Assembly (NCBI GenBank): GCA_965228735.1
Contig: OZ245838.1
Coordinates: 7,104,001-7,168,000, forward strand
DNA: 64,000 bases
From: Planctomycetota bacterium
GTDB taxonomy: Bacteria; Planctomycetota; UBA1135; UBA2386
Direction: 5' to 3'
Position numbers and translations under genes: made by a program. The notes beneath the pieces are model-generated. The model saw only the letters and a program-made list of their open reading frames with translations. It was not told the DNA's origin and searched no databases. Within the stretch, counting starts at the first letter, position 1. The number at the start of each line of letters is the position of its first letter. Shown piece by piece: positions 5,667-63,701 of the stretch.

Positions 5667-7160
5667 ATGCCTCGTCGTTGCGTGGTCGTCGCCCTCGTCG
5701 GTGGGTTCGTCGCCCTCGTGGCGACGGCGGGCAGGAGCCAGGCACCCTGCGGTGCAGTGCCGTACGGCAGCGGCGCGCCGGGCGCGAACGCCATCGTCCC
5801 GGACATCACGATCACCGGCCTGCCATTGCTCGGCAACGCCGGGTTCGGCTACCGCGTCGCCGACGTTCCAGGTGGGGCGTGGACGGTGCACCTGCTCGGG
5901 ATCGCGCCGGCGTCGACGAACGTGCTCGGCGTCGAAGTGCTCGTCGACACGCCCGTGGTGGCCGGCACGTTCGCCGCGTCGAACGGAGGGGCGGCGTTCC
6001 GTTTGCCCCTGCCATCAGCTCCCGCGCTGACCGGATTGCCGCTCTTCGCGCAGACCGGAGCGCTCGACCCGGCGGCCCCGCAGGGGATCTCGGCGAGCGC
6101 GGGGCTGATGGTCGACCTGCGGCGAAACAACATGCTCGGCGCCGTGAGCGCCTACCAGGGCGCCGCCGCGTCGGATGCGTTCTGCGCGATCCACTACCTC
6201 GGCAACGGTCGCATCATCGCCGGCAAGCGGTCGTCGACGGCCAGCAACCGCTTCCTGCTGAGCGTCGACTACGGAATCAACTGGCAGGTCGTGGGCTGTC
6301 CGGGCTCGACGGGCTCGCACGCCTACTTCTTCGGAGCGGATGGCGCGACGGTGTTCTCCGGCACCGGCGACACGGGCAACGCGTGCCTCATGCGCAGCGA
6401 TGATTCTGGCGGGACGTGGACGGTTGCGCTCACGACCGCGCAGATCGGCGCGCTCATCGGCAGCGCGGATCCCAAGGCCGTGTTCGGGCCCGTGGCGCTC
6501 GGCAATGGCGAGTGGCTCGTGAACATCAAGAGCTTCGACTCGAGCAGCTCCGTGATCCGTTCGACGGACAACGGCCAGACGTGGCAGTTGCCCGCGGCGC
6601 AGCCGGGCGTCGGACCGTCGTCGTGGGCGCGGCAGATGATCCGCACGGGCGACGGCGTGTTGCTGTGGCCTGAGGTGCTGACCGATCGCATGTTCCGCTC
6701 GGTCGACGGCGGCGCGTCGTGGAGCATCGCGACGGTGCCGGGTGCCGCGCTCTTCCAGCCCCTCTGCGATGCTGGCGCTGGCGTCTATCTGTGCGGGGAT
6801 GCGAGCCCGGCGGCGAACGGCACGATTCGTCTGCATCGCAGCCTCGACCAGGGGCTCACGTGGTCTGCCGTCGCCGCCGTCAACCTGCAGCAGCCCGCGG
6901 TGACCTACTGGCGCGACGTGATCCGCGCGGGCGGCGCGCTCTATGCGTCGGCGTGCTGTGTCGAAGGGCAGAGCCAGGCGCGCGCGATGCAGCTCTGCCG
7001 TTCGGTCGACGACGGCGCCACGTGGTGTTCGCTCGGCAATCCGTTCGTCGGGCCCTACGGCGGCATGCAGGCGATCTATCAGATGTGCGTGACGGAGCTC
7101 GGTGACGTGTTCGCCGCGTGCCAGCCCGACAGCACGATCGTTCGTTGGCGCGCGCCGTAG
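5667..7160 (+). CDS. Secreted Asp-box (BNR) beta-propeller protein with an N-terminal copy of the shared module
   Basis: Signal peptide; six SxDxGxxW boxes (SVDYGINW, SDDSGGTW, STDNGQTW, SVDGGASW, SLDQGLTW, SVDDGATW). Confidence 0.85.
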   Translation: MPRRCVVVALVGGFVALVATAGRSQAPCGAVPYGSGAPGANAIVPDITITGLPLLGNAGFGYRVADVPGGAWTVHLLGIAPASTNVLGVEVLVDTPVVAGTFAASNGGAAFRLPLPSAPALTGLPLFAQTGALDPAAPQGISASAGLMVDLRRNNMLGAVSAYQGAAASDAFCAIHYLGNGRIIAGKRSSTASNRFLLSVDYGINWQVVGCPGSTGSHAYFFGADGATVFSGTGDTGNACLMRSDDSGGTWTVALTTAQIGALIGSADPKAVFGPVALGNGEWLVNIKSFDSSSSVIRSTDNGQTWQLPAAQPGVGPSSWARQMIRTGDGVLLWPEVLTDRMFRSVDGGASWSIATVPGAALFQPLCDAGAGVYLCGDASPAANGTIRLHRSLDQGLTWSAVAAVNLQQPAVTYWRDVIRAGGALYASACCVEGQSQARAMQLCRSVDDGATWCSLGNPFVGPYGGMQAIYQMCVTELGDVFAACQPDSTIVRWRAP

Positions 7161-7381
7161 TTACGGCGTTGTCGGACTTGGGGAGAACGCTCCACATAGC
7201 GCGCGGACTCGCGCGGGCGATCGTGCAGTCGGCGCTCGTGGTGGGGTTGGCGCCAACCGGTGAGTGCGACGACAATCTGCCGAGTCAGGCAACTCGCCGC
7301 GCAACGATGCCCGTCGAGCCAGCCGCGAGCCGCGTTGGTTCGCCTCGGGAAGCCACCGTCAACCAGGTGTCAGGAAACCTC

Positions 7382-9286
7382 ATGCCGACGTTCCGTTTCG
7401 TCGTCGCAGCGACTCTCGCTGCAGCCGTTCAAGCCCAGGACTGCACGGGCACCACCGCGCAATCCGTCCTGCGCAACCGCGACCCCTGGGGGGCGACGTT
7501 CTTCTACGGCTCCAGCAACGGGCCGACGGGTGCGCAGACGCTCGCCCTGTTCTTCGATCTCGAGACGCGCGCCCCGATCACGATCGAAGCGATGCAGATC
7601 CCGACCTATGACCAGGGCGCGGGCAATCCGGTCATCCCGACCCAGCTCGGCAACGTCGCGGAGGTGCGCGTCTATCTGATCCCCGGCACGCGAACGGGCA
7701 ACGAGACGAACCAGAGCGCGTGGGGCATCGACGCTCTCGGTGTCGGCACGGCCGATGGCGCGCCCGAGGCGCTCGGCGAACTCACGGTGGTCGCGTGGAA
7801 CGGCGACAGTCCGATCGTCAACTTCAAGGATCCGGTGACCGGCCTGCCGGCGCCGTTCGACGTGCCCGTCGGGCAGTTCGGCGTCTGCCTCGAGGTCATC
7901 CCGACGACGTGGTCCGGAACGACCGCGCTGCCGCAGACGAACTTGCCGCTGCTCAACCCCGGCCCCCTGCACACGATCGGGGTGAGCCCCAACCCGGGCG
8001 TTGCGTGGGCCGATGATCTGATCACGGTCGACAACGACGGGGTGCAGCAGCGGGGTTGGCAGATCGTCGACCCGACCGGCGTGATCGGACCGAATCCGTC
8101 GCCGACCGGCGTCATCGACAGCATCAACATCGAGATCGCGTACACGCCGTCGCCCAACGCGGCACGCAGTCTCGCGTACGGCGAGGGCTGCTACGACCGG
8201 CCGCGGGCGTTCTACGACCAGCTCCCCGAAGCAACGGCGTCGGGCAGCTACCTCGAGAACACGGGGATGTCGTTCGCGCCGCTCGGCGCGCCGGTCGAGG
8301 CCTACCTGCCGGGTGCAGGTGCTGCGTATGCACCGCCTGGCGCGGGCGCGACGAATCTGGCGGCCGGCGCGTTCACGTCGAGCTCGAGCGCGTCCTGGGA
8401 CGACGCGAGCGTGACCCAGGCGCTCGGGTTCACGTTCCCGTTCCCGGGCGGCAGCACCGATACCGTCACGATCAACAGCAACGGCAAGATCTACCTCGGC
8501 GTGACCCTCGATGGATCGTTCGCGACCAACGGCGCCAGCTACGGCAGCGTCGCCGTGCTCGAGAACGGTCCGCCGAGCGGTCCGCTCGCGCAGTGGTGTC
8601 CGTTCTTCACCGACCTCGATCCGAGCGATCCGATAGCGCCTGCTGGCAGCGGCGTGTTCTTCGAACAGCTCACCCCGACGAGCTGCCGGATCCATTGGCA
8701 TGATCTGCCCAACTGGCCCGCCGTTGCCGGTCAGCTCAGTCAGGTCAGTATGACCCTCGATGCGTCCGGCCAGGTCGACGTCGCGTGGGGCGTGCTCGAG
8801 AACTCGGCGCCCGGGAGCGGCAACGACGCGCTCATCGGCTTCGCGAGCGGTAACGGCGAGCCGGTCGGGATGCCGCAGATGCTCACCGGTCTGTTCGGCA
8901 CGCCGACGGGCAACGGCGCCGTGGCGCCGAAGCTCGTGATCCGCGGTCGCCCGGTCGCCGGGGCAACGGTCGATCTCGAGATCGAGGACGTCTCGCCGGG
9001 CACGATCTGCGGCTGCATCTCGTTCGCCTATGGCTTCGAGCCGCTGCCCGGCGTGTCGCTCGCGAACTTCGGTCTGCCGGGCTGCTCGCTGTTCATCGAC
9101 AACAGCACCGTACTCGCGGGCGTGTTCTTCTTCCCCGGCCCGCAGAACGAGCTGCGCTGGAGCTGGTCGGTGCCGACCGGCTTCAACGGGGTCGGCACCT
9201 ACCTGCAGGCCGCGACGCTCACGCCGGGAGTCAACGCCGCGAGCCTGCTGATGACCAACGGGCTTTGCGCTCGACTCGGCCTCTGA
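7382..9286 (+). CDS. Secreted beta-rich protein with nidogen-like central region and shared C-terminal module
   Basis: AGGA upstream of ATG 7382; signal peptide ending VQA-Q; WDD..GFTFPFPG..INSNG segment. Confidence 0.8.
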   Translation: MPTFRFVVAATLAAAVQAQDCTGTTAQSVLRNRDPWGATFFYGSSNGPTGAQTLALFFDLETRAPITIEAMQIPTYDQGAGNPVIPTQLGNVAEVRVYLIPGTRTGNETNQSAWGIDALGVGTADGAPEALGELTVVAWNGDSPIVNFKDPVTGLPAPFDVPVGQFGVCLEVIPTTWSGTTALPQTNLPLLNPGPLHTIGVSPNPGVAWADDLITVDNDGVQQRGWQIVDPTGVIGPNPSPTGVIDSINIEIAYTPSPNAARSLAYGEGCYDRPRAFYDQLPEATASGSYLENTGMSFAPLGAPVEAYLPGAGAAYAPPGAGATNLAAGAFTSSSSASWDDASVTQALGFTFPFPGGSTDTVTINSNGKIYLGVTLDGSFATNGASYGSVAVLENGPPSGPLAQWCPFFTDLDPSDPIAPAGSGVFFEQLTPTSCRIHWHDLPNWPAVAGQLSQVSMTLDASGQVDVAWGVLENSAPGSGNDALIGFASGNGEPVGMPQMLTGLFGTPTGNGAVAPKLVIRGRPVAGATVDLEIEDVSPGTICGCISFAYGFEPLPGVSLANFGLPGCSLFIDNSTVLAGVFFFPGPQNELRWSWSVPTGFNGVGTYLQAATLTPGVNAASLLMTNGLCARLGL

Positions 9287-12543: not shown

Positions 12544-13638
12544 ATGAGAACCTCCATGCTCTCCGTCCCCGCCTGCACCCTCCTGCTCGCATCCGCCGCG
12601 ACGGCGCAGTGGTCCGACAACTTCGACACCTACAACATCGGCACCGTGACCGGCCAGGGCGGCTGGGAGGAGTGGACCACGGGTGCCGAGGCCTACGTCA
12701 CGACGACGCAGTTCCGCAGTGCGCCCAACTCGCTCGCGATCGGCCAGGCGACGCCGACCGGCACGCTCGAGAGCGACGTGGTGCAGCAGTACTACAACAC
12801 CAACATGGCCGCGTACTCGACGGGCCACTGGGTCTACACCGCCTGGCAGTACATCCCGAGCTCGATGACGGGCACGACGTACTTCATCCTGCTCAACACC
12901 TACAACATCGGTGGGCCCTACAACTGGTCGGTGCAGGTCGAGTTCGACGCGCAGACGGGTGACGTCGAGATCGACGCGGGCGCGTCCAACAACGGCAACA
13001 CCGCGATCATCCTCGATCAGTGGGTGCGTCTCACGGTCCACATCGACCTCGACAACGACACCTGCCAGTTCTACTACGACGACAAGCCGCTCGGCCCTGA
13101 GTACCAGTGGTCCGGTGGCGTCTTCGGCCAGGGCGGCGGCAATCAGTGGCTCGGTGCGGTCGACCTCTACGGCAACACCGCGACGGACTGCTACTACGAC
13201 GACATGGAGGCGCGGTACTACGGCTACGAGCTGATCGGCCGCAACCCGCCGTCGTCGGTCGGTCCGATCCAGTTCACCGAGCTGCTGTCCGCGACCATCA
13301 CCAACGGCGCGTGGATCACGCAGTTCGACGGCCTGCCGGACGCGCCGTTCTTCCACGTCGTGAGCACCAACCGCACGACCTCGACGCTCGGGACGCTGCC
13401 GATCGACCTCACGCCGTTCGGCCTCACCGGCATGTGCGCCTACGTCAACACGGAGAGCGTGCTGTTCCAGCTCGGCACCCCGACCGGAACGACGTTCCAG
13501 GGGCAGTTCGCCGTCACGATCGGTGGCCCGCAGTTGCTCGGCACCAACCTCTACCAGCAGCTGCTCTACCTCGACAACGGCCTGAACCCGGCGGGCGCGG
13601 GCATGTCCGACGCCTACGGCACGCGCATCACGATGTAG
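12544..13638 (+). CDS. Secreted ConA/LamG-like protein with shared C-terminal module
   Basis: Signal peptide ending ATA-Q; DNFDTY..GQGGW and DQWVRLTVHIDLD..YYDD motifs. Confidence 0.8.
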   Translation: MRTSMLSVPACTLLLASAATAQWSDNFDTYNIGTVTGQGGWEEWTTGAEAYVTTTQFRSAPNSLAIGQATPTGTLESDVVQQYYNTNMAAYSTGHWVYTAWQYIPSSMTGTTYFILLNTYNIGGPYNWSVQVEFDAQTGDVEIDAGASNNGNTAIILDQWVRLTVHIDLDNDTCQFYYDDKPLGPEYQWSGGVFGQGGGNQWLGAVDLYGNTATDCYYDDMEARYYGYELIGRNPPSSVGPIQFTELLSATITNGAWITQFDGLPDAPFFHVVSTNRTTSTLGTLPIDLTPFGLTGMCAYVNTESVLFQLGTPTGTTFQGQFAVTIGGPQLLGTNLYQQLLYLDNGLNPAGAGMSDAYGTRITM

Positions 13639-20931: not shown

Positions 20932-23040
20932 TCAGCGTTCCCAGGTGATCGTGACATCACCCTGGCGGTAGGTGAGCATGCGGCCGCTGTCGTCGATGCG
21001 CAGGCCGATCTTGGTGCCCACCAGGTTGAGGTCGACGGCCCGGGCCGCGACGGTCTCGTCGCCGACCTCGACCTCCTCGTTGCCGGTTGGCGTGAACGAC
21101 AACGGCAGGGGTGACCGGTGTTCGACGTGCAGCGCCTTGCAGTTCACCGGGTCGCTGCCCGCGAGCGGCAGGCGCGCCAGCATGATCAGCAGGTGCGCCG
21201 TGTTGTTGTTGTGCAGCACGAACATGTCGGCCTTGGCGGCGACGGTCTTCTCGTCATCCTCGTCCGCCGCGCCGCGCCGGATCGTGACCACGTCGCCGTC
21301 GCGGACCGCGGAGAACGTCGCCTCCTTGCCGCCCGCCTGTCGCTTCGCCGAGAAGCGCAGCAGGCGTCCGTCGTCGCCGACGACGGTCGTGGCCGTCTCC
21401 TGGTAGCGCCCGTTCGCGAGGTCGACCTCGGTCTCGAACAGGTGGCCGCCATCGTCCTGTTTGCCGCGGTAGGTCATCCGTTCCTTGCCGAGCAGGCTGG
21501 TCCCGTTCCTGTAGACGAACGTCTGCGTCGCCCCGACGGGCCACGGAAACGCGTCGGTGCGGCGCGCCGTCGCGTCCTGCTGGAGCTTCGGCGCGTGGTC
21601 GAGCACCTCGAGCTTCTGCGGCCGGAACGCCGTGAGGTCCTCGCTGAGGCGGATGTGGCTCGCGTCGACGTAGGTCGCCTGGCCGGCCGTGCAGTCGACC
21701 GGCAGCCAGCCGATCTCGTCACCGAGGTAGACCTCGGTCCACATGTGCTGCCCGAAGCTGCCGCCGTAGAGCGGCACGTACATGCCGCCCATCGGTGTTC
21801 GTGCCGGGATGCCGAGCGAGCGCAGCATCGCGGCGAGCACCCGCGAGTGACCGCCGCACTCGCCTTCGCGGAGTTCGAACGTGCGCGCGGCCGTGCCGCC
21901 GCCGGGAATCACGTACGGGATCTCCGCGGTCCAGCGCGCGAGGCGATCGACGACCTCGAAGCAGTTGTTCGCGCCCGCGGCGAGCTCGCGGGCTTTCGCG
22001 CGGATGCCCTCGTGGTCACTCTGGACGTTCTCGTCGGGTGCGAGGTAGGGCTGCAGTTCGGCCGCCGTGAACGTCCCGTCCTCGACGGGGAACGGCGGGG
22101 CTCCGGCGCCGTCGATGCGCCGCGGTCGGATCTCGAACACGCCGTCGACGACGCCGTTCTCGACGGTCCCTTCGAACGACTGGCCGGGCACGTTGAGGCC
22201 TTCCTTCGTCACCACGGCGGTCGCCTCGATCACCGCCCGCACGCGCATGAAGGTCAGGGCCGACGGATCGCCGTAGTCGAGGTTGGTGGGGCCGACGAGC
22301 GTGTCCGTGAGGTCGACGCGTTCGATGCGCGCGACGACCTCCGGGTCCACGAGCTCGATGACCATCGACGCGGCTGGGATGTTCGACGTCAGGACCTCGA
22401 ACTTCACCGCATCGACCGTGATGTCGATGACGGTCCCCATGGTCGCGAGATCGATCGTGTAGTCGCGGATGCGTCGGCGCTGACCGCGGAACTCGCGTTC
22501 GCCGGCGGCGACCCACGTCACCTTGGCCCGCTGCGCGTCGCCGATCTCGGGAACGAAGTAGTCGATCTCGATCGTCACCCCCGGCTTCGCGGGGCCGCGT
22601 TCCGCGAGCCAGCGAAACTCCGGCGTGACGATCACCCGGGTCGGATCGAGCGTCTTGCCGCTCGAAAGCTCGAAGCCGGCGTCCGTCCGTTTGCCGTCGC
22701 ACGTGATCTTCTGATCGCCGACGTCCATGCGCGAGGACATCGACAACACGCGACGCGAGGCGGCATCGAGCATCCACGTCTGATCGACCGATTGCTCGAA
22801 GCTCTGACCCAGCATCTCGAGCTTGATGAGGCTGCGCACCCCGAACCGCACGACGTCCCGGTCCCCTTCCCGCGCCGGGTTCTCCGTTTCGATCTGGTAG
22901 CCGACGACGCGACCGTTGCTCCTGACCGCGTAGGTGCGCTCGATCGCGTTCTCGATCGCGTTCTTCGCCTGGGCCGGAAGCGCGGCAACGGAGGCGAGCA
23001 AGACGGCGAACGACGCGGCGAGCGAGCGGCGGGTGTGCAT
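20932..23040 (-). CDS. Secreted transglutaminase-like domain protein
   Basis: GECGGH..LRSLGIPAR, HMWTEVY and WLPVD (Cys-His-Asp triad); signal peptide. Confidence 0.9.
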   Translation of the reverse strand: MHTRRSLAASFAVLLASVAALPAQAKNAIENAIERTYAVRSNGRVVGYQIETENPAREGDRDVVRFGVRSLIKLEMLGQSFEQSVDQTWMLDAASRRVLSMSSRMDVGDQKITCDGKRTDAGFELSSGKTLDPTRVIVTPEFRWLAERGPAKPGVTIEIDYFVPEIGDAQRAKVTWVAAGEREFRGQRRRIRDYTIDLATMGTVIDITVDAVKFEVLTSNIPAASMVIELVDPEVVARIERVDLTDTLVGPTNLDYGDPSALTFMRVRAVIEATAVVTKEGLNVPGQSFEGTVENGVVDGVFEIRPRRIDGAGAPPFPVEDGTFTAAELQPYLAPDENVQSDHEGIRAKARELAAGANNCFEVVDRLARWTAEIPYVIPGGGTAARTFELREGECGGHSRVLAAMLRSLGIPARTPMGGMYVPLYGGSFGQHMWTEVYLGDEIGWLPVDCTAGQATYVDASHIRLSEDLTAFRPQKLEVLDHAPKLQQDATARRTDAFPWPVGATQTFVYRNGTSLLGKERMTYRGKQDDGGHLFETEVDLANGRYQETATTVVGDDGRLLRFSAKRQAGGKEATFSAVRDGDVVTIRRGAADEDDEKTVAAKADMFVLHNNNTAHLLIMLARLPLAGSDPVNCKALHVEHRSPLPLSFTPTGNEEVEVGDETVAARAVDLNLVGTKIGLRIDDSGRMLTYRQGDVTITWER

Positions 23041-23090
23041 GGTGGCTCCGTGGGGGCGGGGCGGCCGATGCTACCCGACTTTCGAGGGCG

Positions 23091-25775
23091 CTACCCGCCG
23101 GCGCGCACCTCGAACACGATCGTCGCGGCCTTGCGGTCGAGCTCCTGCCGCGTGCCGTTGGCCTGCAGGTGCAGGAATTGACGGCCGTCGTGCCGTTCGA
23201 CGGCGCAGCGGCGCAGTCGATAGTTCATCGGTCTGCCGTCCGCCGCGTGCGCGACGACGCGCGCATCGAAGCGATCGGCCGCGATTCCGAGGGCCGTGAG
23301 GTCGATGCGCGTCAGCACGCGGTAGTCGGCGCGGCGGTCCGTGCCGAACATGTCCCAACTGCGCGGCTGCCAGCCCGCCTCGCGTTCGATCGTTACCGTC
23401 AGCCCGTCGTCGGTCCGGATCGCGCGGACCTTCTCCGCGGGGCTCTCGACCCGCGGAAACGGGCGCAGCGCCGGATCGCCGATGAGGATGCGGTTGCTGC
23501 CGCCGCCCTGCATCACGGCCTCACCGCGCTTGTGCGGTTTGCCGACCTCGGGGATGTCGAGCACGAGTTCGCCGTTCGCTGCCAGCAGCACGTCGTCGTA
23601 CGTCGACTTCATCGTCTCGCCGAGGCTCGCGCCGTGCCGCAGCGCGAAGTCGGTCTCCATCGCGACGCTCATGCCGTGGTTGGCGCCGAGCGGAACGAGC
23701 AGGCTCACGGCTCCGGCCGCGAGCCAGGAGAGCGCCAGGCTGTTCTCGGGCCGGAGCTCGTGCACGGTTGCGTTCTCGGTGCGGCCGAACGTCGAGACGA
23801 TGTCACCTTCCACGAAGACGCGTTGCACGGCGCCGGAGTGACACGTGCCGGACCACAGGATCGGCGCGTCGAGCTCGAGCTCGCGAAAGCGCGCGGCCAT
23901 GAGCCGCGGCATCTCGCCGCTCGGATCCTCGCCGACCCGGGCGGGGTCGTAGTTCCAGTGTAGCTCGGGCTTCAGGTTGCGTTCGTCGTCGAACAGCCAG
24001 ATCCCCTGCGGGTCACCGCAGCCCGTGAACTCGACGACCGCGGCCGTGCTCATCGCCGCGAGCGAGCGCGTCACGAACGCGTCGCAGTCGGGGTCCTTCG
24101 TGCCGTAGTAGTAGTGCGGGGCGACATAGCCCGCGGCGCCCACGGCCTGCGGCGGCGAGTCCGCGTAGAGCAGCGACCGTTCCATCGGGGCGACCGAAGC
24201 CTGCAGCCACGTTCCCTCGCGCTTGCCGCTCGCGTGCACGCGTTCGATGCGTTGCCACAGCCGTTCGCAGGCCGCCCCGTCCTCCGCGGTCAGGTAGCCG
24301 AACGCCACGTCGCAGAACCAATCGTCATCGAGGGCGGCGGCGAGCAGCAGGATGCGGCGGTGCAGCGGCAGATCGAGCGTGTCGGGCCGCAGCACGAACG
24401 CGACGTTCGCCGGAGCGCGGCGACGCAGCTCCCGCTGCAACGCCTCGAAGTCGCGGCCGTCCCACGACCACGAAGCGGCGCGATGGAAGCGTTGCGCGCT
24501 CGTTGCAACGCGCAAGAACCCGGCATCGGATGCTCGTCCGGGAGCGAGGTCCACCGGCACGACGAGGTAGGGCCCGGTGTCCGGCGCGCCGTTCGAGGAC
24601 TTCGCCCGCGTCGGGCGGCCGCTCTTCTCGCCGCCCGGTCGCGAAGCTTCGTCCTCGGCCTCCGCGTCCTCGCGATCCATGCGTTCGAGATAGCCGGCCG
24701 ACGCCGCGCCGACCGAGGTCATGCCCTCGTCCTCGATCACGCGCCGGAACATCGCGCGCGCCTCGTCGCGGCGGCCGACGTTCAGCAGGTGGCAGGCCAT
24801 GTAGTGCCGCACGAGGGTGGCCTCGTCGCCGTCCGGGAAGCGTTCGAGGTAGCGTTTCTCGAACGCGAAGGACTCCTCGTCGCGACCGAGGCGACCCAAC
24901 GTGCACGCCATGTAGAACAGCGCTTCGCGTTCGGCATCGGTGTCGGCCGTCGCGGTGGCGAGCGCGTTCTCGAGCAGTTCTCGGGCAGCGAGCAGATGCG
25001 CTCGATCCGCCTCGCGGAGTTGCCCCGGCAGCGTGAAGCCGACCTGTGCGAAGCGCGAGATCCCGCGGGCGACGAGATCGGCTGCGCCGTGCCTCGCTGC
25101 GCCGGGGCGCGGGGCCGGTGTCTGCGGCTGCGGTTCTTGCGCCGGCAGCGGCTGTTCACGTGACACCGCGTTGGGTTCGAGCCGCCAATGTCCGGCGCCC
25201 AGCGCCGCGGTGCCGGCGGTCGAGAGCTTGCCCTTGCCCGTGATGATCGCGAGCACGCTGCCGTCGAGCACCGCGACGTGCCAGCCGTCGTCGTCCGACG
25301 TCAACGCGAACCCCGCCGGTCCGACGGCTTCGAGCCGGATGTCGTCGCCGAGTTCGACGGTTGCGGCCGCGCGCGCCGGCACCTCGATCACGTCGCGGCC
25401 GACGATCGCGCGTTCGGCGGCGACCGTCCACCCGCGGTCCGGGCCGAGCTGCCGTTGCGTCACCGATCCGCGGGGCGCGGCGGCCGGCAGCAGGAACAGG
25501 ATGAGTGCGGCGGCGAGCGCGGCGGCGGCGAGGCTGTAGAACCGCGCCCGCGCGCCGTGGCCGGAGCCTCTGGTCGTGGCCTCGAGTCGTTTCGCGGACT
25601 CGGTCAGGAGCGCCGTGAGCGCGCGTTCGCCGCTCTCCCACGAGCGGCAGCGTTCGCAGATCGCGAGATGGGCGTGCACGTCGAGTCGCTGCCGGTCGTC
25701 GATCTCGCCTTCGATGGCGAGGAAGAGCAGCGGCCGAATCGAGTCGCAAGTCGGGTTGGTGTCGCGGTCGGTCAT
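23091..25775 (-). CDS. ZAS (zf-HC2) anti-sigma factor with TM, FecR-like, TPR and C25-peptidase-like domains
   Basis: HLAICERC; TM; TPR-like helices; FTGCG, SGTCHSG and ILIGDPALRP; ATGA overlap with the sigma gene. Confidence 0.78.
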   Translation of the reverse strand: MTDRDTNPTCDSIRPLLFLAIEGEIDDRQRLDVHAHLAICERCRSWESGERALTALLTESAKRLEATTRGSGHGARARFYSLAAAALAAALILFLLPAAAPRGSVTQRQLGPDRGWTVAAERAIVGRDVIEVPARAAATVELGDDIRLEAVGPAGFALTSDDDGWHVAVLDGSVLAIITGKGKLSTAGTAALGAGHWRLEPNAVSREQPLPAQEPQPQTPAPRPGAARHGAADLVARGISRFAQVGFTLPGQLREADRAHLLAARELLENALATATADTDAEREALFYMACTLGRLGRDEESFAFEKRYLERFPDGDEATLVRHYMACHLLNVGRRDEARAMFRRVIEDEGMTSVGAASAGYLERMDREDAEAEDEASRPGGEKSGRPTRAKSSNGAPDTGPYLVVPVDLAPGRASDAGFLRVATSAQRFHRAASWSWDGRDFEALQRELRRRAPANVAFVLRPDTLDLPLHRRILLLAAALDDDWFCDVAFGYLTAEDGAACERLWQRIERVHASGKREGTWLQASVAPMERSLLYADSPPQAVGAAGYVAPHYYYGTKDPDCDAFVTRSLAAMSTAAVVEFTGCGDPQGIWLFDDERNLKPELHWNYDPARVGEDPSGEMPRLMAARFRELELDAPILWSGTCHSGAVQRVFVEGDIVSTFGRTENATVHELRPENSLALSWLAAGAVSLLVPLGANHGMSVAMETDFALRHGASLGETMKSTYDDVLLAANGELVLDIPEVGKPHKRGEAVMQGGGSNRILIGDPALRPFPRVESPAEKVRAIRTDDGLTVTIEREAGWQPRSWDMFGTDRRADYRVLTRIDLTALGIAADRFDARVVAHAADGRPMNYRLRRCAVERHDGRQFLHLQANGTRQELDRKAATIVFEVRAGG

Positions 25776-26290
25776 GGTTTCGTTCGTCGTTCGAGTTCGG
25801 TTCGGAGCAGCTGGCGCGCGTCGTAGAGGCGGCCGCGCACCGTCGAGACCGGCACCTGGAGGCGCGCGGCGATCTCGGCGTAGCTCAGGTCGTCGCGGTA
25901 GCGCCAGCTCAGCAACTGGCGGGGCGGTGAAGGCAGCTTCTCGACGAGCTCCCAGACCCAGTGGCCCGGCACCTCGTCGACCACCTCGTCGTCGAGCGGT
26001 GCGAACCGCTGTTGACGCTGACCGCGCCGGTGATGATCGGTGACGCAGTTGCGGGCGATGCGGCCGATCCAGCGGTCGGCCAGGCGCACGTCGAGCAACT
26101 TCGCTAGCTGGTCGTAGACGCGAATCCAGATCTCCTGGATCACGTCCTCGCGCGCGTGCGGGTCGCGCAGGCGTCGCCCGACGATTCGTCGCACCGGGGC
26201 GTCGAACGCGCTCACGATCTCCCCGAACCGGGAATCGTCACCGGCCAACACGGCCTGGACGGCAGCGGGAATTGGATCGGGGCGCGCCAC
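25772..26290 (-). CDS. ECF sigma factor
   Basis: EDVIQEIW, WIGRIARN and LSYAEIAARL..STVRGRL; GTG start inferred. Confidence 0.88.
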   Translation of the reverse strand: MARPDPIPAAVQAVLAGDDSRFGEIVSAFDAPVRRIVGRRLRDPHAREDVIQEIWIRVYDQLAKLLDVRLADRWIGRIARNCVTDHHRRGQRQQRFAPLDDEVVDEVPGHWVWELVEKLPSPPRQLLSWRYRDDLSYAEIAARLQVPVSTVRGRLYDARQLLRTELERRTKP

Positions 26291-26395
26291 GAGGATCTTG
26301 ACGACGGCGAGCGCCGGGTCGTCAGAGAAATCGTATCGCCCATCCAGGGTCGGCCCGGCGAGCGAGCGCGGTGGGCGTGATAGACTGCACGCTCG

Positions 26396-26629
26396 ATGCC
26401 CGATCCCCGGATCGAACCCCAACCGACACCGCTCACGACGCAGCCGCGCAGTCGGCCGCTGCGTGCACACAGCTACAACCTGCCGCCGACCGGCCCGCTG
26501 CGCGGGCGCCACCGGCGGCACTTCGCACGCCAGGAAGGCACGGGCGTGCTCTTCCTGATGTTGATCGCGAGCGTCGGGGTCTACCTGCTCGGCGTCGGGT
26601 TCGGCTGGTGGGAGACGGTGTTCGGCTGA
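26396..26629 (+). CDS. Small membrane protein
   Basis: 77 aa with a C-terminal hydrophobic helix; fills an intergenic gap. Confidence 0.45.
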   Translation: MPDPRIEPQPTPLTTQPRSRPLRAHSYNLPPTGPLRGRHRRHFARQEGTGVLFLMLIASVGVYLLGVGFGWWETVFG

Positions 26630-26711: not shown

Positions 26712-27749
26712 ATGGTTCGCTTCGCCGCTGCCGCTCTCGCTCTCTTGGCCGGGGTCCTCTCGGCCCAGACCCTCGTCGGCATCAAGACGGTGGGCAGCAT
26801 GTTCCGGCTGGAGCGCGGCACCGGCACCGCCTACCGGGCGGGCACGGTGGTTGGCCTCGGCAACGCGATCGTGCAGGAGCTGGCATACGACTCCGCGACC
26901 CGAACGGCGTGGCTGACGACATCGACCGATCAGCTGTGGACCGTCGACCTCGCGACGGGCGCGGCGACGCTCGTCGGAACGTACGCGCCGGGCGGGATGA
27001 ACGGTCTCGACTGGGACGGTTCGCGAGGGCTGCTCTACGGCGTGGCCGCGGACAACCGCCTCTACACGATCGACCCGGCGACGGCGGCGACGACGTCGGT
27101 CGGTCCGACGGGTCTGAGCGGCACCGTCAACATCGCATACGACTCGACGCGGGACGAACTGCTCGCGGTCGACAGCAGCACGATCAGTCTCCATCGACTC
27201 GATCGCGCACTCGGTCTGGCGAGCACGATCTCCGCATTCAACGGTCCGGGGAGCCCCGGCAGCCTCGCCTACGGCGCCGCGGCGGACACCCTGTATCTCG
27301 CCGACGGCCTGACGCGCAATCTGTATCGCGTCGACCCGGCGACCGGGTTGGCGAGCCTGATCGGACCCTATGGCGGCCTCGTGGTGTCGGCCACCGCCGT
27401 GCTGCCCGCCGCCGACTCGACGCGACGACCGCACGGCTGCGGCGTGACGCTGCGCGTGGACGGGTTGCCGTTGCTCGGCGGCAGCCTCGCGGCGGAAGTG
27501 CCCAACCCCGCGTACCCGACCTTCATCGGACTCGGTCTCCGCTCACTCACGATCCCGTTCTGCGCCTGCACGCTCGGGCACGGCTGGATCGCGAGCCGAC
27601 TCGGTGACAGCGCGACGCTGCCGATCCCGAGCACCGCGACGTTCCGCGGCGTGCAGGTCGCGTTCCAGGCCGGTCAGGTGCTGACACCCTTCGGGTGCAC
27701 GGTGCCGCAGGTGGCCTTCAGCGACACGTTCGTCTTCGTGATCGACTAG
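26712..27749 (+). CDS. Secreted beta-propeller protein with shared C-terminal module
   Basis: Signal peptide ending LSA-Q; repeated LAYD..LYxIDPATG.A.xG blades. Confidence 0.85.
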   Translation: MVRFAAAALALLAGVLSAQTLVGIKTVGSMFRLERGTGTAYRAGTVVGLGNAIVQELAYDSATRTAWLTTSTDQLWTVDLATGAATLVGTYAPGGMNGLDWDGSRGLLYGVAADNRLYTIDPATAATTSVGPTGLSGTVNIAYDSTRDELLAVDSSTISLHRLDRALGLASTISAFNGPGSPGSLAYGAAADTLYLADGLTRNLYRVDPATGLASLIGPYGGLVVSATAVLPAADSTRRPHGCGVTLRVDGLPLLGGSLAAEVPNPAYPTFIGLGLRSLTIPFCACTLGHGWIASRLGDSATLPIPSTATFRGVQVAFQAGQVLTPFGCTVPQVAFSDTFVFVID

Positions 27750-45441: not shown

Positions 45442-45978
45442 GTGACCCGAACCTTCGAGCACGACGACCCCATCGCGCGCTCCGGACGAAGCGATCCGCT
45501 GTCGCCCGCCTGGTTGGACCGCCATCGCGATCGCGTTTACTGGTACCTGCGGTTCTTGCGCTGTCCGCACGACCTCAGTGAAGACCTGACGCAGGACGCC
45601 CTGCACCGCGGCTGGCGAAATCACGAACCGCTCGCCGGGGATGAGCGGACCGCCGATGCCTGGCTGCGCACGACGGCGCGCAATCTGTACTTCGAACACC
45701 TCCGTCGCATGCGGCGGCGCATCGAGTTCGAGGACACCGACATGCTCGAGCGCGTCTGGCAGGAGGAGGTCGAAGCCGATTCACGACGCCATGCGCTGGG
45801 CACGTGCCTGGATGCGCTCGGCGGGCGGGCGCGGCGCGCGTTGGAGATGCACTACGTCGAAGGCCAGGGCCGCGAGGCGATCGGCCGTGAGCTCGGCATC
45901 GGCGTTCATGGCGTCAAGAGCATGTTGCGCCGGCTGCGGCAGAGCCTGAAGGAATGCACCGAGAGGAGACTGCGATGA
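45442..45978 (+). CDS. ECF sigma factor
   Basis: EDLTQDA, AWLRTTARN and VKSMLRRLRQSL. Confidence 0.88.
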   Translation: MTRTFEHDDPIARSGRSDPLSPAWLDRHRDRVYWYLRFLRCPHDLSEDLTQDALHRGWRNHEPLAGDERTADAWLRTTARNLYFEHLRRMRRRIEFEDTDMLERVWQEEVEADSRRHALGTCLDALGGRARRALEMHYVEGQGREAIGRELGIGVHGVKSMLRRLRQSLKECTERRLR

Positions 45979-47705
45979 AGATCGACGAAACGGTGTGCCG
46001 CGATGCGGCGTTCGATGTGTTGCTGGCACGCACGCTCGCCGCAGGGCGTCGCACCGACGTGGCCGCGGCAGTCCGAGCGGACCACCCGCGACCCGCGCGG
46101 CAGAACCTCCTGCAGACGCTGGCCATCGTCGCCGGTATCGCGGTCGTCGTCCTCACCGCGTGGCGATCGTCCCTGCCCGCATCCCCGGTCCAGGACCCGC
46201 AGCGCCCGCTTCGCGAGATCACGTTGCAGGATGCGGAGCACCTGCGGCGTCTCGCCGACGACGTGCACGATGCGTTCGCGCAGTTCGTCCAGGTCGTGAC
46301 CATTCGCTTCCCGATCGGCCGCCAGTTCGGCCAGCAGGTCGACTTCGTCGAAGTACCGGACGCACGAATCGAGGTTGCGAACGGTGCGGCGTTGGCCCGC
46401 GAACTGGCCACCGCATTCGCCAGACCGCGCGATGCATCGGCCTCGCACCAGGACGCGCTGCTCGATCTCCACCTGCCCGTCGATGACGATCGATGCATCG
46501 TGGTGCGTTGCCACCGGACCGGCGGCAAGGTGTCGATCTCGACCGTCGGACTCGGCCTGCGGCACGTCGACGGCGAACTCGCGAACCGCGTGCGGGAGTG
46601 GATGAACCGCGCCAAGGAAGCTGCCGCCCCGACGTTCGTCTTCGCGACGACCGCGCCGGACCTGCGCAATGCACCCGAGACCGTCACTCAGCTAATCGGC
46701 TACGGGGTCGACGACGAGGCGCTGCCTGCCACCAAGCACATGCCGTTGCTGCAGCGCGTCAGGCTCGTCGGCCGCCACACCGACGAGTACCCGCAGGACT
46801 ACGTCGGCGTCGAGCTGTCGGCCACCGGGTTGGCAGAGCTGGCCGCGTGCCCACGGATCACGCACCTGCACCTCGAGAGCGCTGTCCTCGATGATCGCGC
46901 GCTCGGCATCGTTGCCGGGTTCGCCGATCTGCGTGAACTGGTCATCGATGACGGCCGTCGTTGCACGTTCGGCCGCGGGGGAATCGCCCTGTTGGCCAAC
47001 CTGCCGCGCCTCCGCAGCGTGCACATCGACGGTTGCGACGGCCTGACCGACAGCGCGCTGGCGGCGCTGGCGCGCAGCCGCACTCTCACGGAGGTTCGAC
47101 TCGTGGACTGCAATCGCGTGAGCGGGCGTGGTATCCGGGCCCTGCTCGGGGCGACGGCACTGCGTCGACTCGAGCTCGTTCGCGTCGATGTCAGCGGCGA
47201 CGACGACGAGGTCGACACCGATGCATCGGGGCTGCGCGAGCTCGAGCTCGTCAAGTGCACCGGCCGCTTCTCGGCCTGGGAGGTGACCCCGAACATCGCC
47301 CGCCTGAGCCTCTCCGACCAATCGCTCGACGCCGGCGGGATCGAGTCGCTGTGTCGACTGCCGCTGCGGGAGCTGAGGATCTCGCGTTGTCCGGGCGCCG
47401 CGCCGCACCTCGAGCGACTGGCGGCGCTGCCGCGTCTGGAGTCGCTGACGATCCTGGGCATGCGCGCCGGTGCGGATTGGCCGTCGACGTTCGCGAAGCT
47501 GCGTCACGCCGAGTCGCTGCGTCGACTGAGCCTGGTGCAGAACGGGCTGGCCGATGACCACGCCGTGCACCTGCGCCACCTGCAGCAGCTCGACCGGCTC
47601 GACCTGAGATACAACCAGATCCGGCCGAAGCGGCTCGACGAGCTGCGGCAGTGGCTGCCGGGCGTCGCTGTGTTCGGCGACGATTCCCGAGCTGGACCCA
47701 AGTGA
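45975..47705 (+). CDS. Putative anti-sigma factor with TM and leucine-rich repeats
   Basis: ATGA overlap with the ECF gene; one TM; LxxLxLxx repeats. Confidence 0.8.
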   Translation: MKIDETVCRDAAFDVLLARTLAAGRRTDVAAAVRADHPRPARQNLLQTLAIVAGIAVVVLTAWRSSLPASPVQDPQRPLREITLQDAEHLRRLADDVHDAFAQFVQVVTIRFPIGRQFGQQVDFVEVPDARIEVANGAALARELATAFARPRDASASHQDALLDLHLPVDDDRCIVVRCHRTGGKVSISTVGLGLRHVDGELANRVREWMNRAKEAAAPTFVFATTAPDLRNAPETVTQLIGYGVDDEALPATKHMPLLQRVRLVGRHTDEYPQDYVGVELSATGLAELAACPRITHLHLESAVLDDRALGIVAGFADLRELVIDDGRRCTFGRGGIALLANLPRLRSVHIDGCDGLTDSALAALARSRTLTEVRLVDCNRVSGRGIRALLGATALRRLELVRVDVSGDDDEVDTDASGLRELELVKCTGRFSAWEVTPNIARLSLSDQSLDAGGIESLCRLPLRELRISRCPGAAPHLERLAALPRLESLTILGMRAGADWPSTFAKLRHAESLRRLSLVQNGLADDHAVHLRHLQQLDRLDLRYNQIRPKRLDELRQWLPGVAVFGDDSRAGPK

Positions 47706-55486: not shown

Positions 55487-55735
55487 ATGACCGACTCCCT
55501 CATCGAGCTGCGACTGCGGCGAGTGGGCAACTCCCTGGGCGTCATCTTGCCCAGGGAGGCGCTCGAGGCCCTCGGCGTCGACGCCAAGGAAGGGGCAAAG
55601 CTGGCGCTCGTCCGGTTGCCCGACGGCAGCGGGCTCGAGCTGCGCCACGAGGACGCGAAGTTCGAGCGCAAGCTCGCCCTGCTGCGCGACACGATGCAGA
55701 AGTACAAGAACACGCTCCGGTCGCTGGCGAAGTGA
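55487..55735 (+). CDS. AbrB/MazE-family antitoxin
   Basis: RRVGNSLGVILPRE motif; YKNTLRSLAK tail. Confidence 0.9.
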   Translation: MTDSLIELRLRRVGNSLGVILPREALEALGVDAKEGAKLALVRLPDGSGLELRHEDAKFERKLALLRDTMQKYKNTLRSLAK

Positions 55736-56115
55736 CCGCCGAGCCGGAGTGGATCGAGCTGGCAGATGCCCTGCTGTTCCACGGCCGGTTGATCGCGGTG
55801 TTCGGCGGCGCCTCGGGCATCAGTGACAAGGGACTGCTCGAGTCGGCGCTGAGTCGCCCACGAAACCTGTTCGGCTACGGTACGACCGATCACTTCGAAC
55901 TGGCTGCCGCGTATGCGCACGGCATCGTCCAGAATCACCCGTTCGTGGACGGCAACAAGCGAGCGGCCTTCGTGATTGCGCGTGTCTTCCTCGGCATCAA
56001 CGAGCTTGCGTTCGATCCGCCGGAGGAGGAAGCGGTCGTCATGGTGGAGGGGCTTGCGGCGGGTGAGGTGTCGCAGGCGCTGTTCGCCGAATGGCTGCGG
56101 AAGCACACCAAGTAG
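55732..56115 (+). CDS. doc: Death-on-curing (Doc/Fic) toxin
   Basis: GLLESALSRP and NHPFVDGNKR; GTGA overlap with the antitoxin. Confidence 0.93.
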   Translation: MTAEPEWIELADALLFHGRLIAVFGGASGISDKGLLESALSRPRNLFGYGTTDHFELAAAYAHGIVQNHPFVDGNKRAAFVIARVFLGINELAFDPPEEEAVVMVEGLAAGEVSQALFAEWLRKHTK

Positions 56116-57563: not shown

Positions 57564-57602
57564 ATCCATCGCCTGCGAGCCCTCACGTTTCCGCAAGCGG
57601 CG

Positions 57603-58520
57603 CTAAGTTTGAACTACGACGCCGTTCGTCCCAATGAACGTGCCGCCACTGATCGCGATGCCTTGCGTGTAGAACGTCAGGCCCGGGATCGGAGGAAAGG
57701 TCGCCTCGAAGTCGACGAACTTGCGGTTGTTTGGTCCGTCGAGGAGCGGCACTCCGAGGATGAACTGGGGCTGTACGAGTAACGGACAGGCGAAGCTGGG
57801 CAACTGGACGTTCCACTGCGTGTCGCCGCCCATAAGCCAGGCGAACGTCGCGTCGCTGGGTAGGGAAGCCACGAACACTCGGTCGAACGTTGCGTCGCCG
57901 TGCTGACAGCCCAGTTCACCGGCGCAGTTGGGACCGAACACGGGCTCCAGGTTTGGCTCGACGAAATCGAGGACGATGGCCGAACTCACGGCGGAGGCGC
58001 CCGAGGAAGGGGAGCTCGCAGAGTCGATCGTCCAACGCACTTCCGTGCCGCGGCGATCGCAAAGCACCGGGAGCGTCGTTTGCGGCGTCGATGTGAGCCC
58101 GGATGCGCTGTGCTCCAGGATTCCGTCAGCTCCGACGTCGATCTCGGATTGCGCACCGACTGCGAGAGGCGATAGCCAGAGGTTGTAGTCCACCTGCACG
58201 TCGAACTCGAGGTGAACGCGGCTTGGTGCTGGCGCGGTCACGACAGTGGTCAGCGATGTGCGCGCCGCAGTGTAGAAGTGGTGCAGTTGCGACGCGCGCT
58301 GTCGTGCCTCCAAGCGGTTGCCTGCCCGATCGAGACTAATCACTCCGAGATAGACGAAGCTCGGAAATGTCACGGGTCCGGGCGGAAGGTAGTGGTACTG
58401 GCCCGAGCCCTCCGACGTGAAGTACCAGGTGGCCTGAGGCGCGTTGCGAGTATCGAGTTGCAAGCCTTGCGCCGGCAAGCTGGCGAGTGACATCGATACC
58501 GCGATAAGCGAGTTCCGCAT
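57603..58520 (-). CDS. Secreted protein with shared C-terminal module
   Basis: Signal peptide ending LPA-Q; FGPNC...PGLTFYTQ..TNGVVV. Confidence 0.78.
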   Translation of the reverse strand: MRNSLIAVSMSLASLPAQGLQLDTRNAPQATWYFTSEGSGQYHYLPPGPVTFPSFVYLGVISLDRAGNRLEARQRASQLHHFYTAARTSLTTVVTAPAPSRVHLEFDVQVDYNLWLSPLAVGAQSEIDVGADGILEHSASGLTSTPQTTLPVLCDRRGTEVRWTIDSASSPSSGASAVSSAIVLDFVEPNLEPVFGPNCAGELGCQHGDATFDRVFVASLPSDATFAWLMGGDTQWNVQLPSFACPLLVQPQFILGVPLLDGPNNRKFVDFEATFPPIPGLTFYTQGIAISGGTFIGTNGVVVQT

Positions 58521-60914: not shown

Positions 60915-60925
60915 GGCCGTAGGGC

Positions 60926-61828: not shown

Positions 61829-62000
61829 GGCTACCTCTTCCATGTTGGGAAGAGTAGGGCAACTCGCCGAGTTAGGCTAGTCGCGTGCAGTCGTTGGAGG
61901 TGCAGTCGGTCGGCGGCGTGAGGGGTTGTCGTCGGTTGCTGATCTGGCCGACGCACGGGCTCTTGCGGCCGGGGTGACCGTCAACCAGAATCCGAGTGCC

Positions 62001-62201
62001 GACATCCTCGCTGACTTCCCCGACCTGGAGCGCGCTGACATCCACGCGGCCCTCGCGTACGCGACGGAGCGGGAGCGACGGTCTGTGGAAGTCCCGCCCG
62101 CGTGAAGCTCCTGTTCGACGAGAATCTGGCGCCGCGGCCCGCCGCGGCATTGCAGGACCTGTTTCCCGAATCGCAGCACGTCCGCGATGCCGGACGTGCC
62201 G
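62001..62201 (+). pseudogene. Degenerate partial duplicate of the DUF433/DUF5615 junction
   Basis: Ungapped match to 57283-57483 with about 18 mismatches in 201 nt by manual count. Confidence 0.85.
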
Positions 62202-62219
62202 TCGCTTCGGACGCGCAGA

Positions 62220-63701
62220 TCAGTTGAAGATCGGCAGCTCGGTGACGCGGCCGACGAAGAAGTTGTCGTTCGAGTCGATCCAGCCAGCCTGCAGGTAGAG
62301 GTTCTGCGCCACGAAGGCCGGCGAGGTCGGCACTTGCAGCGTGATGGTCTGCGAGGCGTTGAATGGGAAGCCGATGCCGGCGACGATCACCGGGTCGGTG
62401 AGCACGGGGTTGTCGAGGTAGGCGCCCGGCGTGTTGGTGCGAGAGAACGAGGCGCCGAGGGCCCAGATCTGGTCGAGCACGTTGAAGTGGGCGTCGACCT
62501 CGAACGAGAAGCTCTGGCCAGGCGCCGCGGCGACGACTCGGTCGTGAATCGAGACCTCGCGCTCCATACCGGTGCGGTAGAAGCTGAGCGGGTCGTTGGG
62601 ACCCTGCCCGAAGAAGAAGATGGTCGGGTCGAGCTCGTTCGGCTGAGCGTTCGGATCCTGCTGGACGAACGGTGGGATGGAGTAGACGAACAGCTCCAAC
62701 GGGGTCAGGACCGTGTAGGCGCCACCCGGTTCGGTGGTGAGACCGTCCCGCACGTGCATTACCGACGCGCTGCGTTCGGGGGTGCCGGCGACGATCTGTC
62801 GAGTGATGAACGACAGCCATTGACGGTCGCCGCTGACCTCCAGCGTTTCTACATCCACACCGATCGTGAGGTCACGGATCGCGAGCGGGTTGTTGCGGTT
62901 GAAGCGCACGATCTTGTGGATCGAGGGCGTCGCGTTGTTCGACATGCGCGCGACCAGATACTGCGTGTCGATCCACTTCAGGTCGGTCATCGTGTGATTG
63001 GCCGGCACGTTGAAGCTCACGACGCCGCCCGGAACGCTGCCGTTGAAGTTCACGAACGAGACCTGCTGACCGGTCGTGCCGTTGCTGAGGAACGCGATCT
63101 GCGATAGCGAGCCGTTGTCGATCACGGTCAACGGTTCAGTCGCGGCCGGGCCCGAGGTGGGGGTGAGTCGAGGCGGGTTGCCCGCGATCCCGCTGCGGCC
63201 GGTGTAGAAGAGGTTGCCGACGGAGTTGCCCGGCTGCGTGTTGGCGCGCCGCAGGAAGAACGTGTTGTTGCCGGTGCGCACGCCCTCGACGCGCCAGCTC
63301 TCGTTGGTCGCGAACGACAAGGTCGGCAGCTGAGTCGCTCCGCCGACGAGGTATCGTTCGACGAGCACGGCGTTGCCATTGACGTCGTTCTGCACATCGT
63401 AGGTCGTGGTCGGCGTCGCCGTGCTGCGTTCCCAGATGATCGAATCGACCGAGCCGGCGGCGAACGGGTCGATGATCTGCACGAAGGTCGGGTTGCCGCC
63501 GGTCGCGAGGTCGAAGTAGCCGTAGGCGCCGTTCGTCGCGCGCAGTAGAACCCGCAAGCCGGCGTCGCCGAAGCCGAACGAGGTCCCGCCCTGCGAGGTG
63601 AGGTTGTTGACGGTGAATGGGGTCAGATACTGCGCCGCCAGTGGGCTGCAGCAGGCGAGGGCGAACGCCGTAGCGGCGATCGAAGGAAGTCGTGTAGTCA
63701 T
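62220..63701 (-). CDS. Secreted beta-rich protein with shared C-terminal module
   Basis: Signal peptide ending LAA-Q; LQVPTSPAFVAQNLYLQAGWID. Confidence 0.8.
   Translation of the reverse strand: MTTRLPSIAATAFALACCSPLAAQYLTPFTVNNLTSQGGTSFGFGDAGLRVLLRATNGAYGYFDLATGGNPTFVQIIDPFAAGSVDSIIWERSTATPTTTYDVQNDVNGNAVLVERYLVGGATQLPTLSFATNESWRVEGVRTGNNTFFLRRANTQPGNSVGNLFYTGRSGIAGNPPRLTPTSGPAATEPLTVIDNGSLSQIAFLSNGTTGQQVSFVNFNGSVPGGVVSFNVPANHTMTDLKWIDTQYLVARMSNNATPSIHKIVRFNRNNPLAIRDLTIGVDVETLEVSGDRQWLSFITRQIVAGTPERSASVMHVRDGLTTEPGGAYTVLTPLELFVYSIPPFVQQDPNAQPNELDPTIFFFGQGPNDPLSFYRTGMEREVSIHDRVVAAAPGQSFSFEVDAHFNVLDQIWALGASFSRTNTPGAYLDNPVLTDPVIVAGIGFPFNASQTITLQVPTSPAFVAQNLYLQAGWIDSNDNFFVGRVTELPIFN

Follow-up and report, generated by a model that had tools for sequence, protein, structure and literature searches.

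What a domain common to otherwise unrelated exported proteins does for them is the question raised by a 64,000-nucleotide stretch of a Planctomycetota bacterium genome (GenBank assembly GCA_965228735.1, contig OZ245838.1, positions 7,104,001 to 7,168,000), referred to here as the window. A preliminary description of the window had pointed out an unnamed terminal module of about 110 residues in seven secreted proteins, and had proposed that it behaves like the C-terminal domain (CTD) of type IX secretion system (T9SS) substrates and could mark the cargo of an undescribed secretion, anchoring or lattice system. The seven proteins are called A to G below (Table 1). The genome holding the window is a single contig of 7,193,928 bases (7.19 Mb) and is designated G000, other G numbers denoting comparison genomes. 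The module was found to be a homologous domain present in about 6% of the genes of this genome, and it is, with a probability that we put at about even, a handle for docking or sorting shared by Sec-exported proteins, which it would hold at the cell envelope.

A homologous module in seven exported proteins

The sequence pattern claimed for the seven proteins was present in the translations of all of them. Pairwise BLASTP comparisons among the seven were weak, the top module pairs being A and G (E = 0.014), D and E (E = 0.20), and A and D (E = 0.39). A hidden Markov model (HMM) of the seven segments matched 47 further open reading frames (ORFs) at E ≤ 1e-3 among the 61,526 ORFs (≥60 residues) of a six-frame translation of the genome. 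Iteration of the HMM led from 54 to 242, 285, 295, 297 and finally 306 ORFs, at which point it converged, and a reversed-sequence control for the iterated HMM gave 0 matches. In addition, a profile built without the window members recovered all seven, with E values from 1.1e-19 to 2.5e-4. The module is homologous in all seven window proteins.

A signal-peptide-like start ending in Ala/Ser-Gln was observed in each of the seven proteins. The pattern forms the C-terminal end of six of them, as had been described; in protein A, however, it lies directly behind the signal peptide (residues 33-149) and ahead of a BNR propeller. The module spans 105-130 residues rather than a uniform 110 or so. Among the cargo labels given earlier, ELWxxDGT (protein E; TIGR04534) and propeller (A, BNR; D, DUF4394/DUF6923) were upheld, whereas ConA-like for protein C and nidogen-like for protein B found no support in Pfam or NCBIfam. 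Both the gene at 7382 and that at 12544 lie on the plus strand, the long ORFs on the strand opposite them being arginine-rich antisense artefacts.

When the HMMER filters were switched off, 332 of the 5,410 called proteins matched at E ≤ 1e-3 and 342 at E ≤ 0.01, and all 10 proteins in the bin between 1e-3 and 1e-2 carry the module C-terminally. The module carriers of this genome therefore number 306-342 proteins, about 6% of genes (approximately 1 in 16), with one copy each.

Position, export signal and sequence of the module

The genome-wide count of terminal positions, which had been proposed as a check, agreed with a predominantly terminal domain. The 306 copies consist of 282 C-terminal copies, 13 N-terminal copies directly behind the signal peptide and 11 copies followed by an extra tail of 34-45 residues, and no hydrophobic helix was found in these 11 tails. 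The copy ends within 5 residues of the stop codon in 277 of the 306 ORFs. The N-terminal form is no annotation slip, because G010 encodes an ortholog of protein A that is built in the same way (57% identity over aa 15-497), and units of signal peptide plus module stand at the head of other proteins in G003, G002 and G000. In the module tree the N-terminal copies are scattered and do not form one clade, their largest pure clade having 3 members.

The position of the module bears on the possibility that it directs proteins into an undescribed route across the outer membrane, as a secretion signal similar to the T9SS CTD that is recognized in the periplasm and possibly cleaved. We regard this explanation as rather unlikely. 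It is in accord with the 92% of copies at the extreme C-terminus, with a stop that follows the domain after 1-2 residues in 231 of the 277 ORFs just mentioned, and with the hundreds of substrates per genome that bear Sec signal peptides. The 13 N-terminal copies, the form of which is conserved in relatives, argue against a strictly C-terminal secretion signal.

A signal-peptide-like start was detected in 272 of the 306 module ORFs. According to a crude classifier, a signal peptide of the "...A-Q" type occurs in 203 of the 295 called carriers, compared with 844 of about 2,460 other proteins having a signal-peptide-like start, and a lipobox occurs in at most 9 of the 295. Cleavage after the Ala of such a signal peptide would expose an N-terminal Gln, which could cyclise to pyroglutamate.

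The module profile has 123 positions. Conservation is high for one Gln (96%), one Pro (93%) and two Gly (85% and 81%), and the Ser/Thr of a pair with Asn, this Asn and two Cys also belong to the top conserved columns. The cysteines are located in G-x-G-C and P-G-C motifs, and copies with two cysteines (130 of 306) outnumber those with any other number. Lysine is strongly depleted in module proteins throughout the genome, those of the window included, amounting to 0.18% in the modules and 0.56% in the cargo of module proteins, compared with approximately 2.2% in a crude proxy of the proteome.

Predicted fold and search for a catalogued family

AlphaFold2, run with a 58-sequence alignment, predicted the module of protein B to be a seven-strand, immunoglobulin (Ig)-like beta-sandwich (predicted local distance difference test [pLDDT] 84.3; predicted template modelling score [pTM] 0.76). 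The module of protein F was likewise modelled as a beta-sandwich (pLDDT 83.7, pTM 0.74). These models place the module in the class of seven-strand, two-sheet sandwiches that comprises Ig-like, macroglobulin (MG) and fibronectin type III (FN3) domains, an assignment of fold class only and not of family.

A Foldseek search of the PDB with the module model gave nothing at E ≤ 1e-3. With an exhaustive structural aligner, the B module matched the MG domain of TEP1r (2pn5_A, Z 9.6 over 106 residues at 3.0 Å), the Ig domain of PECAM-1 (5gni_A, Z 9.0) and complement C5 (3kls_A, Z 8.7). The best match of the F module was 7f9m_C (Z 8.8), and CBM56 (5t7a_B, Z 8.7) and the beta-glucan-binding domain of GNBP3 (3ie4_A, Z 8.4) were also found. 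The comparison of predicted structures suggested earlier thus gave a beta-sandwich for both modules, and 12 entries were common to their lists of the top 50 structural matches. Although MG, Ig and FN3 domains resemble the module in their seven-strand sandwich topology, their identity to it is 7-15%, and the matches do not rise above the background of other sandwiches. The same applies to the C-terminal domain of PorU (6za2_B), which aligned with the B module at Z 7.7 over 95 residues and 2.7 Å, not above background; this match and the Ig-like sandwich, a fold also seen in T9SS CTDs, lend some support to a secretion signal.

The matches of the F module to CBM56 and GNBP3 also raise the possibility of a ligand-binding or adhesion domain that, in the manner of a carbohydrate-binding module, binds an external substrate or the surface of another cell and has no part in sorting. 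We consider this unlikely. Z values of this size are common for any sandwich, no conserved aromatic platform is present among the top conserved columns, and none of the 306 ORFs has a second, tandem copy. On the other hand, the module shares with many binding modules that it can stand at either end of the chain, and many of its carriers are hydrolases or propellers.

No Pfam family matched the module in the seven window proteins or in 37 further carriers, and none matched 58 modules searched in isolation, for which the lowest E, 0.035, was to an unrelated family; no NCBIfam family matched it in the seven window proteins and the 37 further carriers. The best E value of the module against PDB sequences was 0.38. 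The 30 nearest ESM Atlas clusters, annotated as "hypothetical protein", had no common Pfam 38.1 family, and their commonest phylum was Planctomycetota. The precomputed Pfam lists of 20 metagenomic carriers contained cargo families only (PKD, RCC1 and Kelch). PF25852 is probably part of the cargo of protein A, since a precomputed table lists it for A and not for B or D. Full-text literature searching, judged from titles and abstract openings, found nothing on this domain.

Cargo and a possible exchange of anchors

The non-module parts of the carriers formed 99 single-linkage clusters, of which 76 were singletons, and the largest, with 102 members, consisted mainly of Kelch-type propellers. Representatives of 37 of the 99 clusters were scanned against Pfam, namely the 10 largest outside the window and 27 of a random draw of 28 from the other clusters; the three window proteins drawn (E, G and C) were scanned separately. 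The families found in the 37 representatives were FG-GAP, di-haem peroxidase, sortilin/BNR, beta-helix, PPC, S8 and M14 peptidases, RCC1, CHRD, sulfatase, amidase_3 with Golvesin_C, lamin-tail and choice-of-anchor I, and 18 of the 37 had no family match. Kelch and BNR are also among the cargo families of the module. In the module tree, 40 of 95 sister pairs are attached to different cargo clusters, which indicates that the module moves between genes. The presence of one domain on about 6% of genes, with all kinds of cargo, greatly exceeds what is usual for a single substrate-binding module, and this speaks further against a ligand-binding role.

One of the carriers belongs in full to the choice-of-anchor I family (NF038117), scoring 472 bits where the cut-off is 300. 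This family is defined by its occurrence with more than one kind of anchoring signal. In G000 the protein combines an ordinary signal peptide with the module. In contrast, its counterpart in the module-less genome G015 (530 bits) has a lipobox signal peptide, stops right behind the domain and lacks the module. Searches for further exchanges of this kind, with CHRD and di-haem peroxidase cargo as queries, gave no clear orthologs in five module-less genomes.

The cargo also bears on whether the module is a structural add-on for folding, stability or self-association without any address function, which appears very improbable to us. The cargo joins the module without a linker, and the top conserved positions given above (Gln, Pro and the two Gly) could all be structural. 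However, it is hard to explain why one stabiliser should serve at least 99 unrelated, freely shuffled cargo groups, and it is a lipid anchor, not another fold, that takes the place of the module in the relative. Both this explanation and that of a ligand-binding domain fit the abundance and the cargo range of the module less well than a handle at the envelope does.

Distribution in Planctomycetota and in public data

Within the order to which G000 belongs, the module was detected in 20 of 21 genomes, with 7 to at least 150 matches per carrier genome; G015 (2.9 Mb, 91% complete) is the one genome without a match. In a sample of 201 Planctomycetota genomes (even sampling, completeness ≥85%), 42 had the module, and its presence was all-or-none by family, with for example 5/5, 4/4 and 5/5 genomes in some families versus 0/9, 0/10, 0/8 and 0/6 in others.

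A public protein library of 1.84 billion cluster representatives gave 21,468 matches at E ≤ 1e-3, 10,644 at ≤1e-10 and 495 at ≤1e-30. Among the top library representatives (n=149), 147 carry the module C-terminally, 1 N-terminally and 1 with a 14-residue tail. When a single module was used as the query, 10 of 11 related public loci were labelled as Planctomycetota metagenome-assembled genomes (two of them "Brocadiaceae"), and the remaining one was a 3.5-kb contig labelled Ilumatobacteraceae. Approximately 1 gene in 16 of G000, and the public representatives matched here, carry a domain that has no Pfam or NCBIfam name. With a curated model of the module, many thousands of metagenomic proteins now called "hypothetical" could be annotated as exported and probably envelope-located.

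Comparison with known systems and search for machinery

The likeness to a T9SS CTD proposed earlier holds in part. One terminal copy per protein, mostly Sec-type signal peptides, at least 99 cargo groups, hundreds of copies per genome and an Ig-like sandwich agree with such a tag, whereas the 13 N-terminal copies do not. The closest parallel is the type A CTD of Bacteroidota (Por_Secre_tail, PF18962/TIGR04183), which is also a terminal Ig-like beta-sandwich on Sec-exported proteins, has very diverse cargo and many copies per genome, and is restricted in lineage. T9SS CTDs have approximately 70-100 residues. The module, in contrast, has 105-130 residues, commonly bears a cysteine pair, occurs in another phylum and shows no sequence match to type A CTDs, 0 of 58 modules matching any Pfam family. 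Nor does it keep to their strict C-terminal position, 24 of its 306 copies being N-terminal or followed by an extra tail (13 and 11, respectively).

T9SS components were searched for in G000 with controls that proved weak. SprA_N had 0 matches, and its control gave no match in any genome; PorV had 0 matches, and its control matched only below the cut-off, in Bacteroides thetaiotaomicron; Por_Secre_tail (PF18962) had 0 matches, and the control genomes were also without a match. That SprA, PorV and Por_Secre_tail were not found with these weak controls distinguishes the module from T9SS substrates and counts to some degree against a secretion signal of that type.

PorU belongs to the Peptidase C25 family, and a C25 peptidase was considered as a sortase for the module and rejected. 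The family is present in 116 of the 201 phylum genomes, in 30 of 42 module-positive versus 86 of 159 module-negative ones, and it was not found in the module-rich genomes G129 and G161; G000 has one C25 gene. In G184, a distant module-positive genome, C25 and module matches lie in the same frames of 841 and 839 residues (C96:95188-96867 and C54:111724-113394), indicating that the C25 peptidase there is itself module cargo. Both the distribution of C25 and its place among the cargo speak against a secretion signal.

The PEP-CTERM tags of the exosortase sorting system resemble the module in that they, too, mark the C-terminus of exported proteins in environmental Gram-negative bacteria and occur on "choice-of-anchor" cargo. 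They differ from it in that the module has no transmembrane helix or basic tail: by a crude pattern, a hydrophobic helix was present in the last 45 residues of 1 of 295 carriers and the PEP pattern in none. The whole genome contains 1 PEP-CTERM-like protein according to the crude pattern. Exosortase was rejected as a partner; of 201 genomes, 86 have it (17 of the 42 module-positive and 69 of the 159 module-negative ones), and it neither co-occurs with the module nor complements it, so that it shows no association with module presence.

Envelope proteins of G000 were also considered. The genome has three Omp85 paralogues, namely a BamA-like protein, a patatin fusion and a 459-residue protein. 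Of 38 candidate outer-membrane proteins with a beta-signal-like end, 20 were scanned. Large exported proteins were rejected as a translocon, two being Rhs-repeat proteins and one (2,109 aa) being without a family. Exported proteins of about 2,080 residues with RHS repeats are encoded at G000:C1:3787232-3793462 and 5214372-5220623, one of which has a nuclease domain resembling that of contact-dependent inhibition (CDI) toxins at its end.

Among the candidate outer-membrane proteins scanned was a lipoprotein family of 1,100-1,200 residues with Big_5 and a long glycine-rich middle, encoded at G000:C1:2695762-2699205 and, by its paralogues, at 2418909-2422364 and 5166207-5169566. The family is present in 22 of the 201 phylum genomes, all 22 of them module-positive, and in 21 of 21 genomes of the order. 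It was rejected as a partner, because its presence in the module-less G015 (10 matches, best E 5.9e-43) indicates that the pattern marks lineage and not linkage to the module. The co-occurrence search for machinery that had been proposed, as far as these three families are concerned, led to no partner: C25 and exosortase do not co-vary with the module, and the Big_5 lipoprotein tracks lineage. With T9SS parts also not found in the weakly controlled searches, the dedicated secretion, anchoring or lattice system of the preliminary description was not demonstrated.

Within two genes of module genes, extracytoplasmic function (ECF) sigma factors (36/96, p 7e-7), anti-sigma-like proteins of about 900 residues (33/81, p 2e-7) and further diverged module carriers were enriched, and no other family was. 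This enrichment points to regulation and not to machinery. A complex prediction with three module copies scored 0.00; it was run without controls and speaks neither for nor against binding.

Proposed function of the module

The interpretation that we prefer is that of a tag for addressing or docking: the module is present once per protein, is terminal, occurs on varied Sec substrates, is shuffled between them, and is retained or lost lineage by lineage. Once exported by Sec, it would fold in the periplasm, with a disulfide forming between the two common cysteines. A protein or glycan of the envelope would then bind the module and bring diverse cargo to one location, most likely the cell surface. 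A docking handle is favoured over a T9SS-type secretion signal because the N-terminal copies are conserved and a lipid anchor replaces the module in a relative, although the two explanations overlap. More specifically, the module may be the address tag of a sorting system that is not homologous to T9SS, serves about 6% of the proteome in mostly uncultured Planctomycetota lineages, and has its receptor or translocon among lineage-specific envelope genes; we put this forward tentatively, as possible but clearly short of an even chance.

SLH domains and dockerins offer a precedent for a docking handle, since they too are terminal modules at either chain end and bring many unrelated exoproteins to one site through one partner. 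SLH domains are helical and usually occur in threes, and a dockerin is a calcium-binding helical pair. Their folds are unrelated to that of the module, which is predicted to be a single beta-sandwich and has no known polymer or cohesin-like partner.

Several results weigh against a docking handle at the envelope. No partner or machinery was identified among the candidates examined, and the structural matches of the predicted models are generic only (best Z 9.6). The exchange of the module for a lipoprotein anchor is a single example, and the all-or-none distribution by family could reflect shared ancestry only. The cargo includes di-haem cytochrome c peroxidase and N-acetylmuramoyl-L-alanine amidase, which are classically periplasmic and speak against a surface location of the module proteins. 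Unlike many tethering modules, the module has no flexible linker to its cargo, a conserved P-A-x-V-x-x-[FY]-G-x-G-C lead-in following directly behind the cargo, and this too counts against a surface location. Finally, the mean net charge of the module is -3.3, and lysine is almost absent from it; an acidic domain of this kind has no obvious way of binding anionic envelope polymers.

To our knowledge, it has yet to be established how Planctomycetota place proteins in their unusual envelope. A handle common to hundreds of exported proteins would offer an experimental entry to this question, as a bait, a reporter tag or the read-out of a genetic screen.

Features of the window

The window has a G+C content of 64-72% and 48 called genes, among which the module matches were those of carriers A to G only; an eighth carrier lies directly beyond the window end. 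The coordinates of the carriers and of other features are given in Table 1.

Table 1. Module carriers and other features of the window. Positions are those of the window. E values of A to G are from a profile of 300 copies outside the window (Z=61,526).
Feature	Position	Strand	Signal peptide ending [A/S/T]-x-A-Q	Module	E value	Description
Protein A	5667-7160	+		N-terminal; DNA 5763-6119, aa 33-149	1.1e-19	497 aa; signal peptide, BNR/sialidase-type propeller behind module
Protein B	7382-9286	+	7382-7445	C-terminal; DNA 8894-9280, aa 505-633	1.4e-19	634 aa; signal peptide, cargo without family match
Protein C	12544-13638	+	12544-12610	C-terminal; DNA 13240-13629, aa 252-360	1.4e-8	364 aa; signal peptide, cargo without family match
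Protein D	26712-27749	+	26712-26780	C-terminal; DNA 27429-27743, aa 242-344	1.5e-4 (3.3e-7 at Z=5,410)	345 aa; signal peptide, DUF4394/DUF6923 propeller-like cargo
Protein E	37814-40813	-	40740-40813 (-)	C-terminal; DNA 37820-38167, aa 884-998	2.1e-10	999 aa; signal peptide, 16 ELWxxDGT repeats (TIGR04534, 668 bits)
Protein F	57603-58520	-	58460-58520 (-)	C-terminal, most divergent of the seven; DNA ~57606-57953, HMM-aligned aa 215-303	2.5e-4 (2.7e-5 at Z=5,410)	305 aa; signal peptide, cargo without family match
Protein G	62220-63701	-	63630-63701 (-)	C-terminal; DNA 62235-62564, aa 392-487	8.5e-7	493 aa; signal peptide, cargo without family match
Sigma/anti-sigma-like frame	2-3244	-				Single frame, 1,081 residues or longer; ECF sigma regions 2 and 4 (residues 30-176) joined to CarboxypepD_reg and Big_1-type domains; continues beyond window
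ECF sigma unit between carriers	20932-26521	-				Sigma 25772-26521; zf-HC2 anti-sigma 23091-25775; transglutaminase-like protein 20932-23040
Permease-like fusion	34552-37668	-				1,038 residues; ArsP_1 permease-like N-terminal part (residues 77-358), FG-GAP repeats, ASPIC/UnbV end
Second ECF sigma unit	45442-47705	+				Sigma 45442-45978, overlapped by leucine-rich repeat (LRR) protein 45954-47705
MazE-like/Fic pair	55487-56115	+				MazE-like antitoxin gene, then Fic/DOC family gene

The frame at the start of the window represents a sigma/anti-sigma-like fusion or, alternatively, two genes that were read as a single one. The pair formed by the MazE-like antitoxin gene and the Fic/DOC family gene looks like a toxin-antitoxin pair. 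The permease-like protein, the gene of which adjoins that of carrier E, represents an unusual fusion of membrane and repeat domains.

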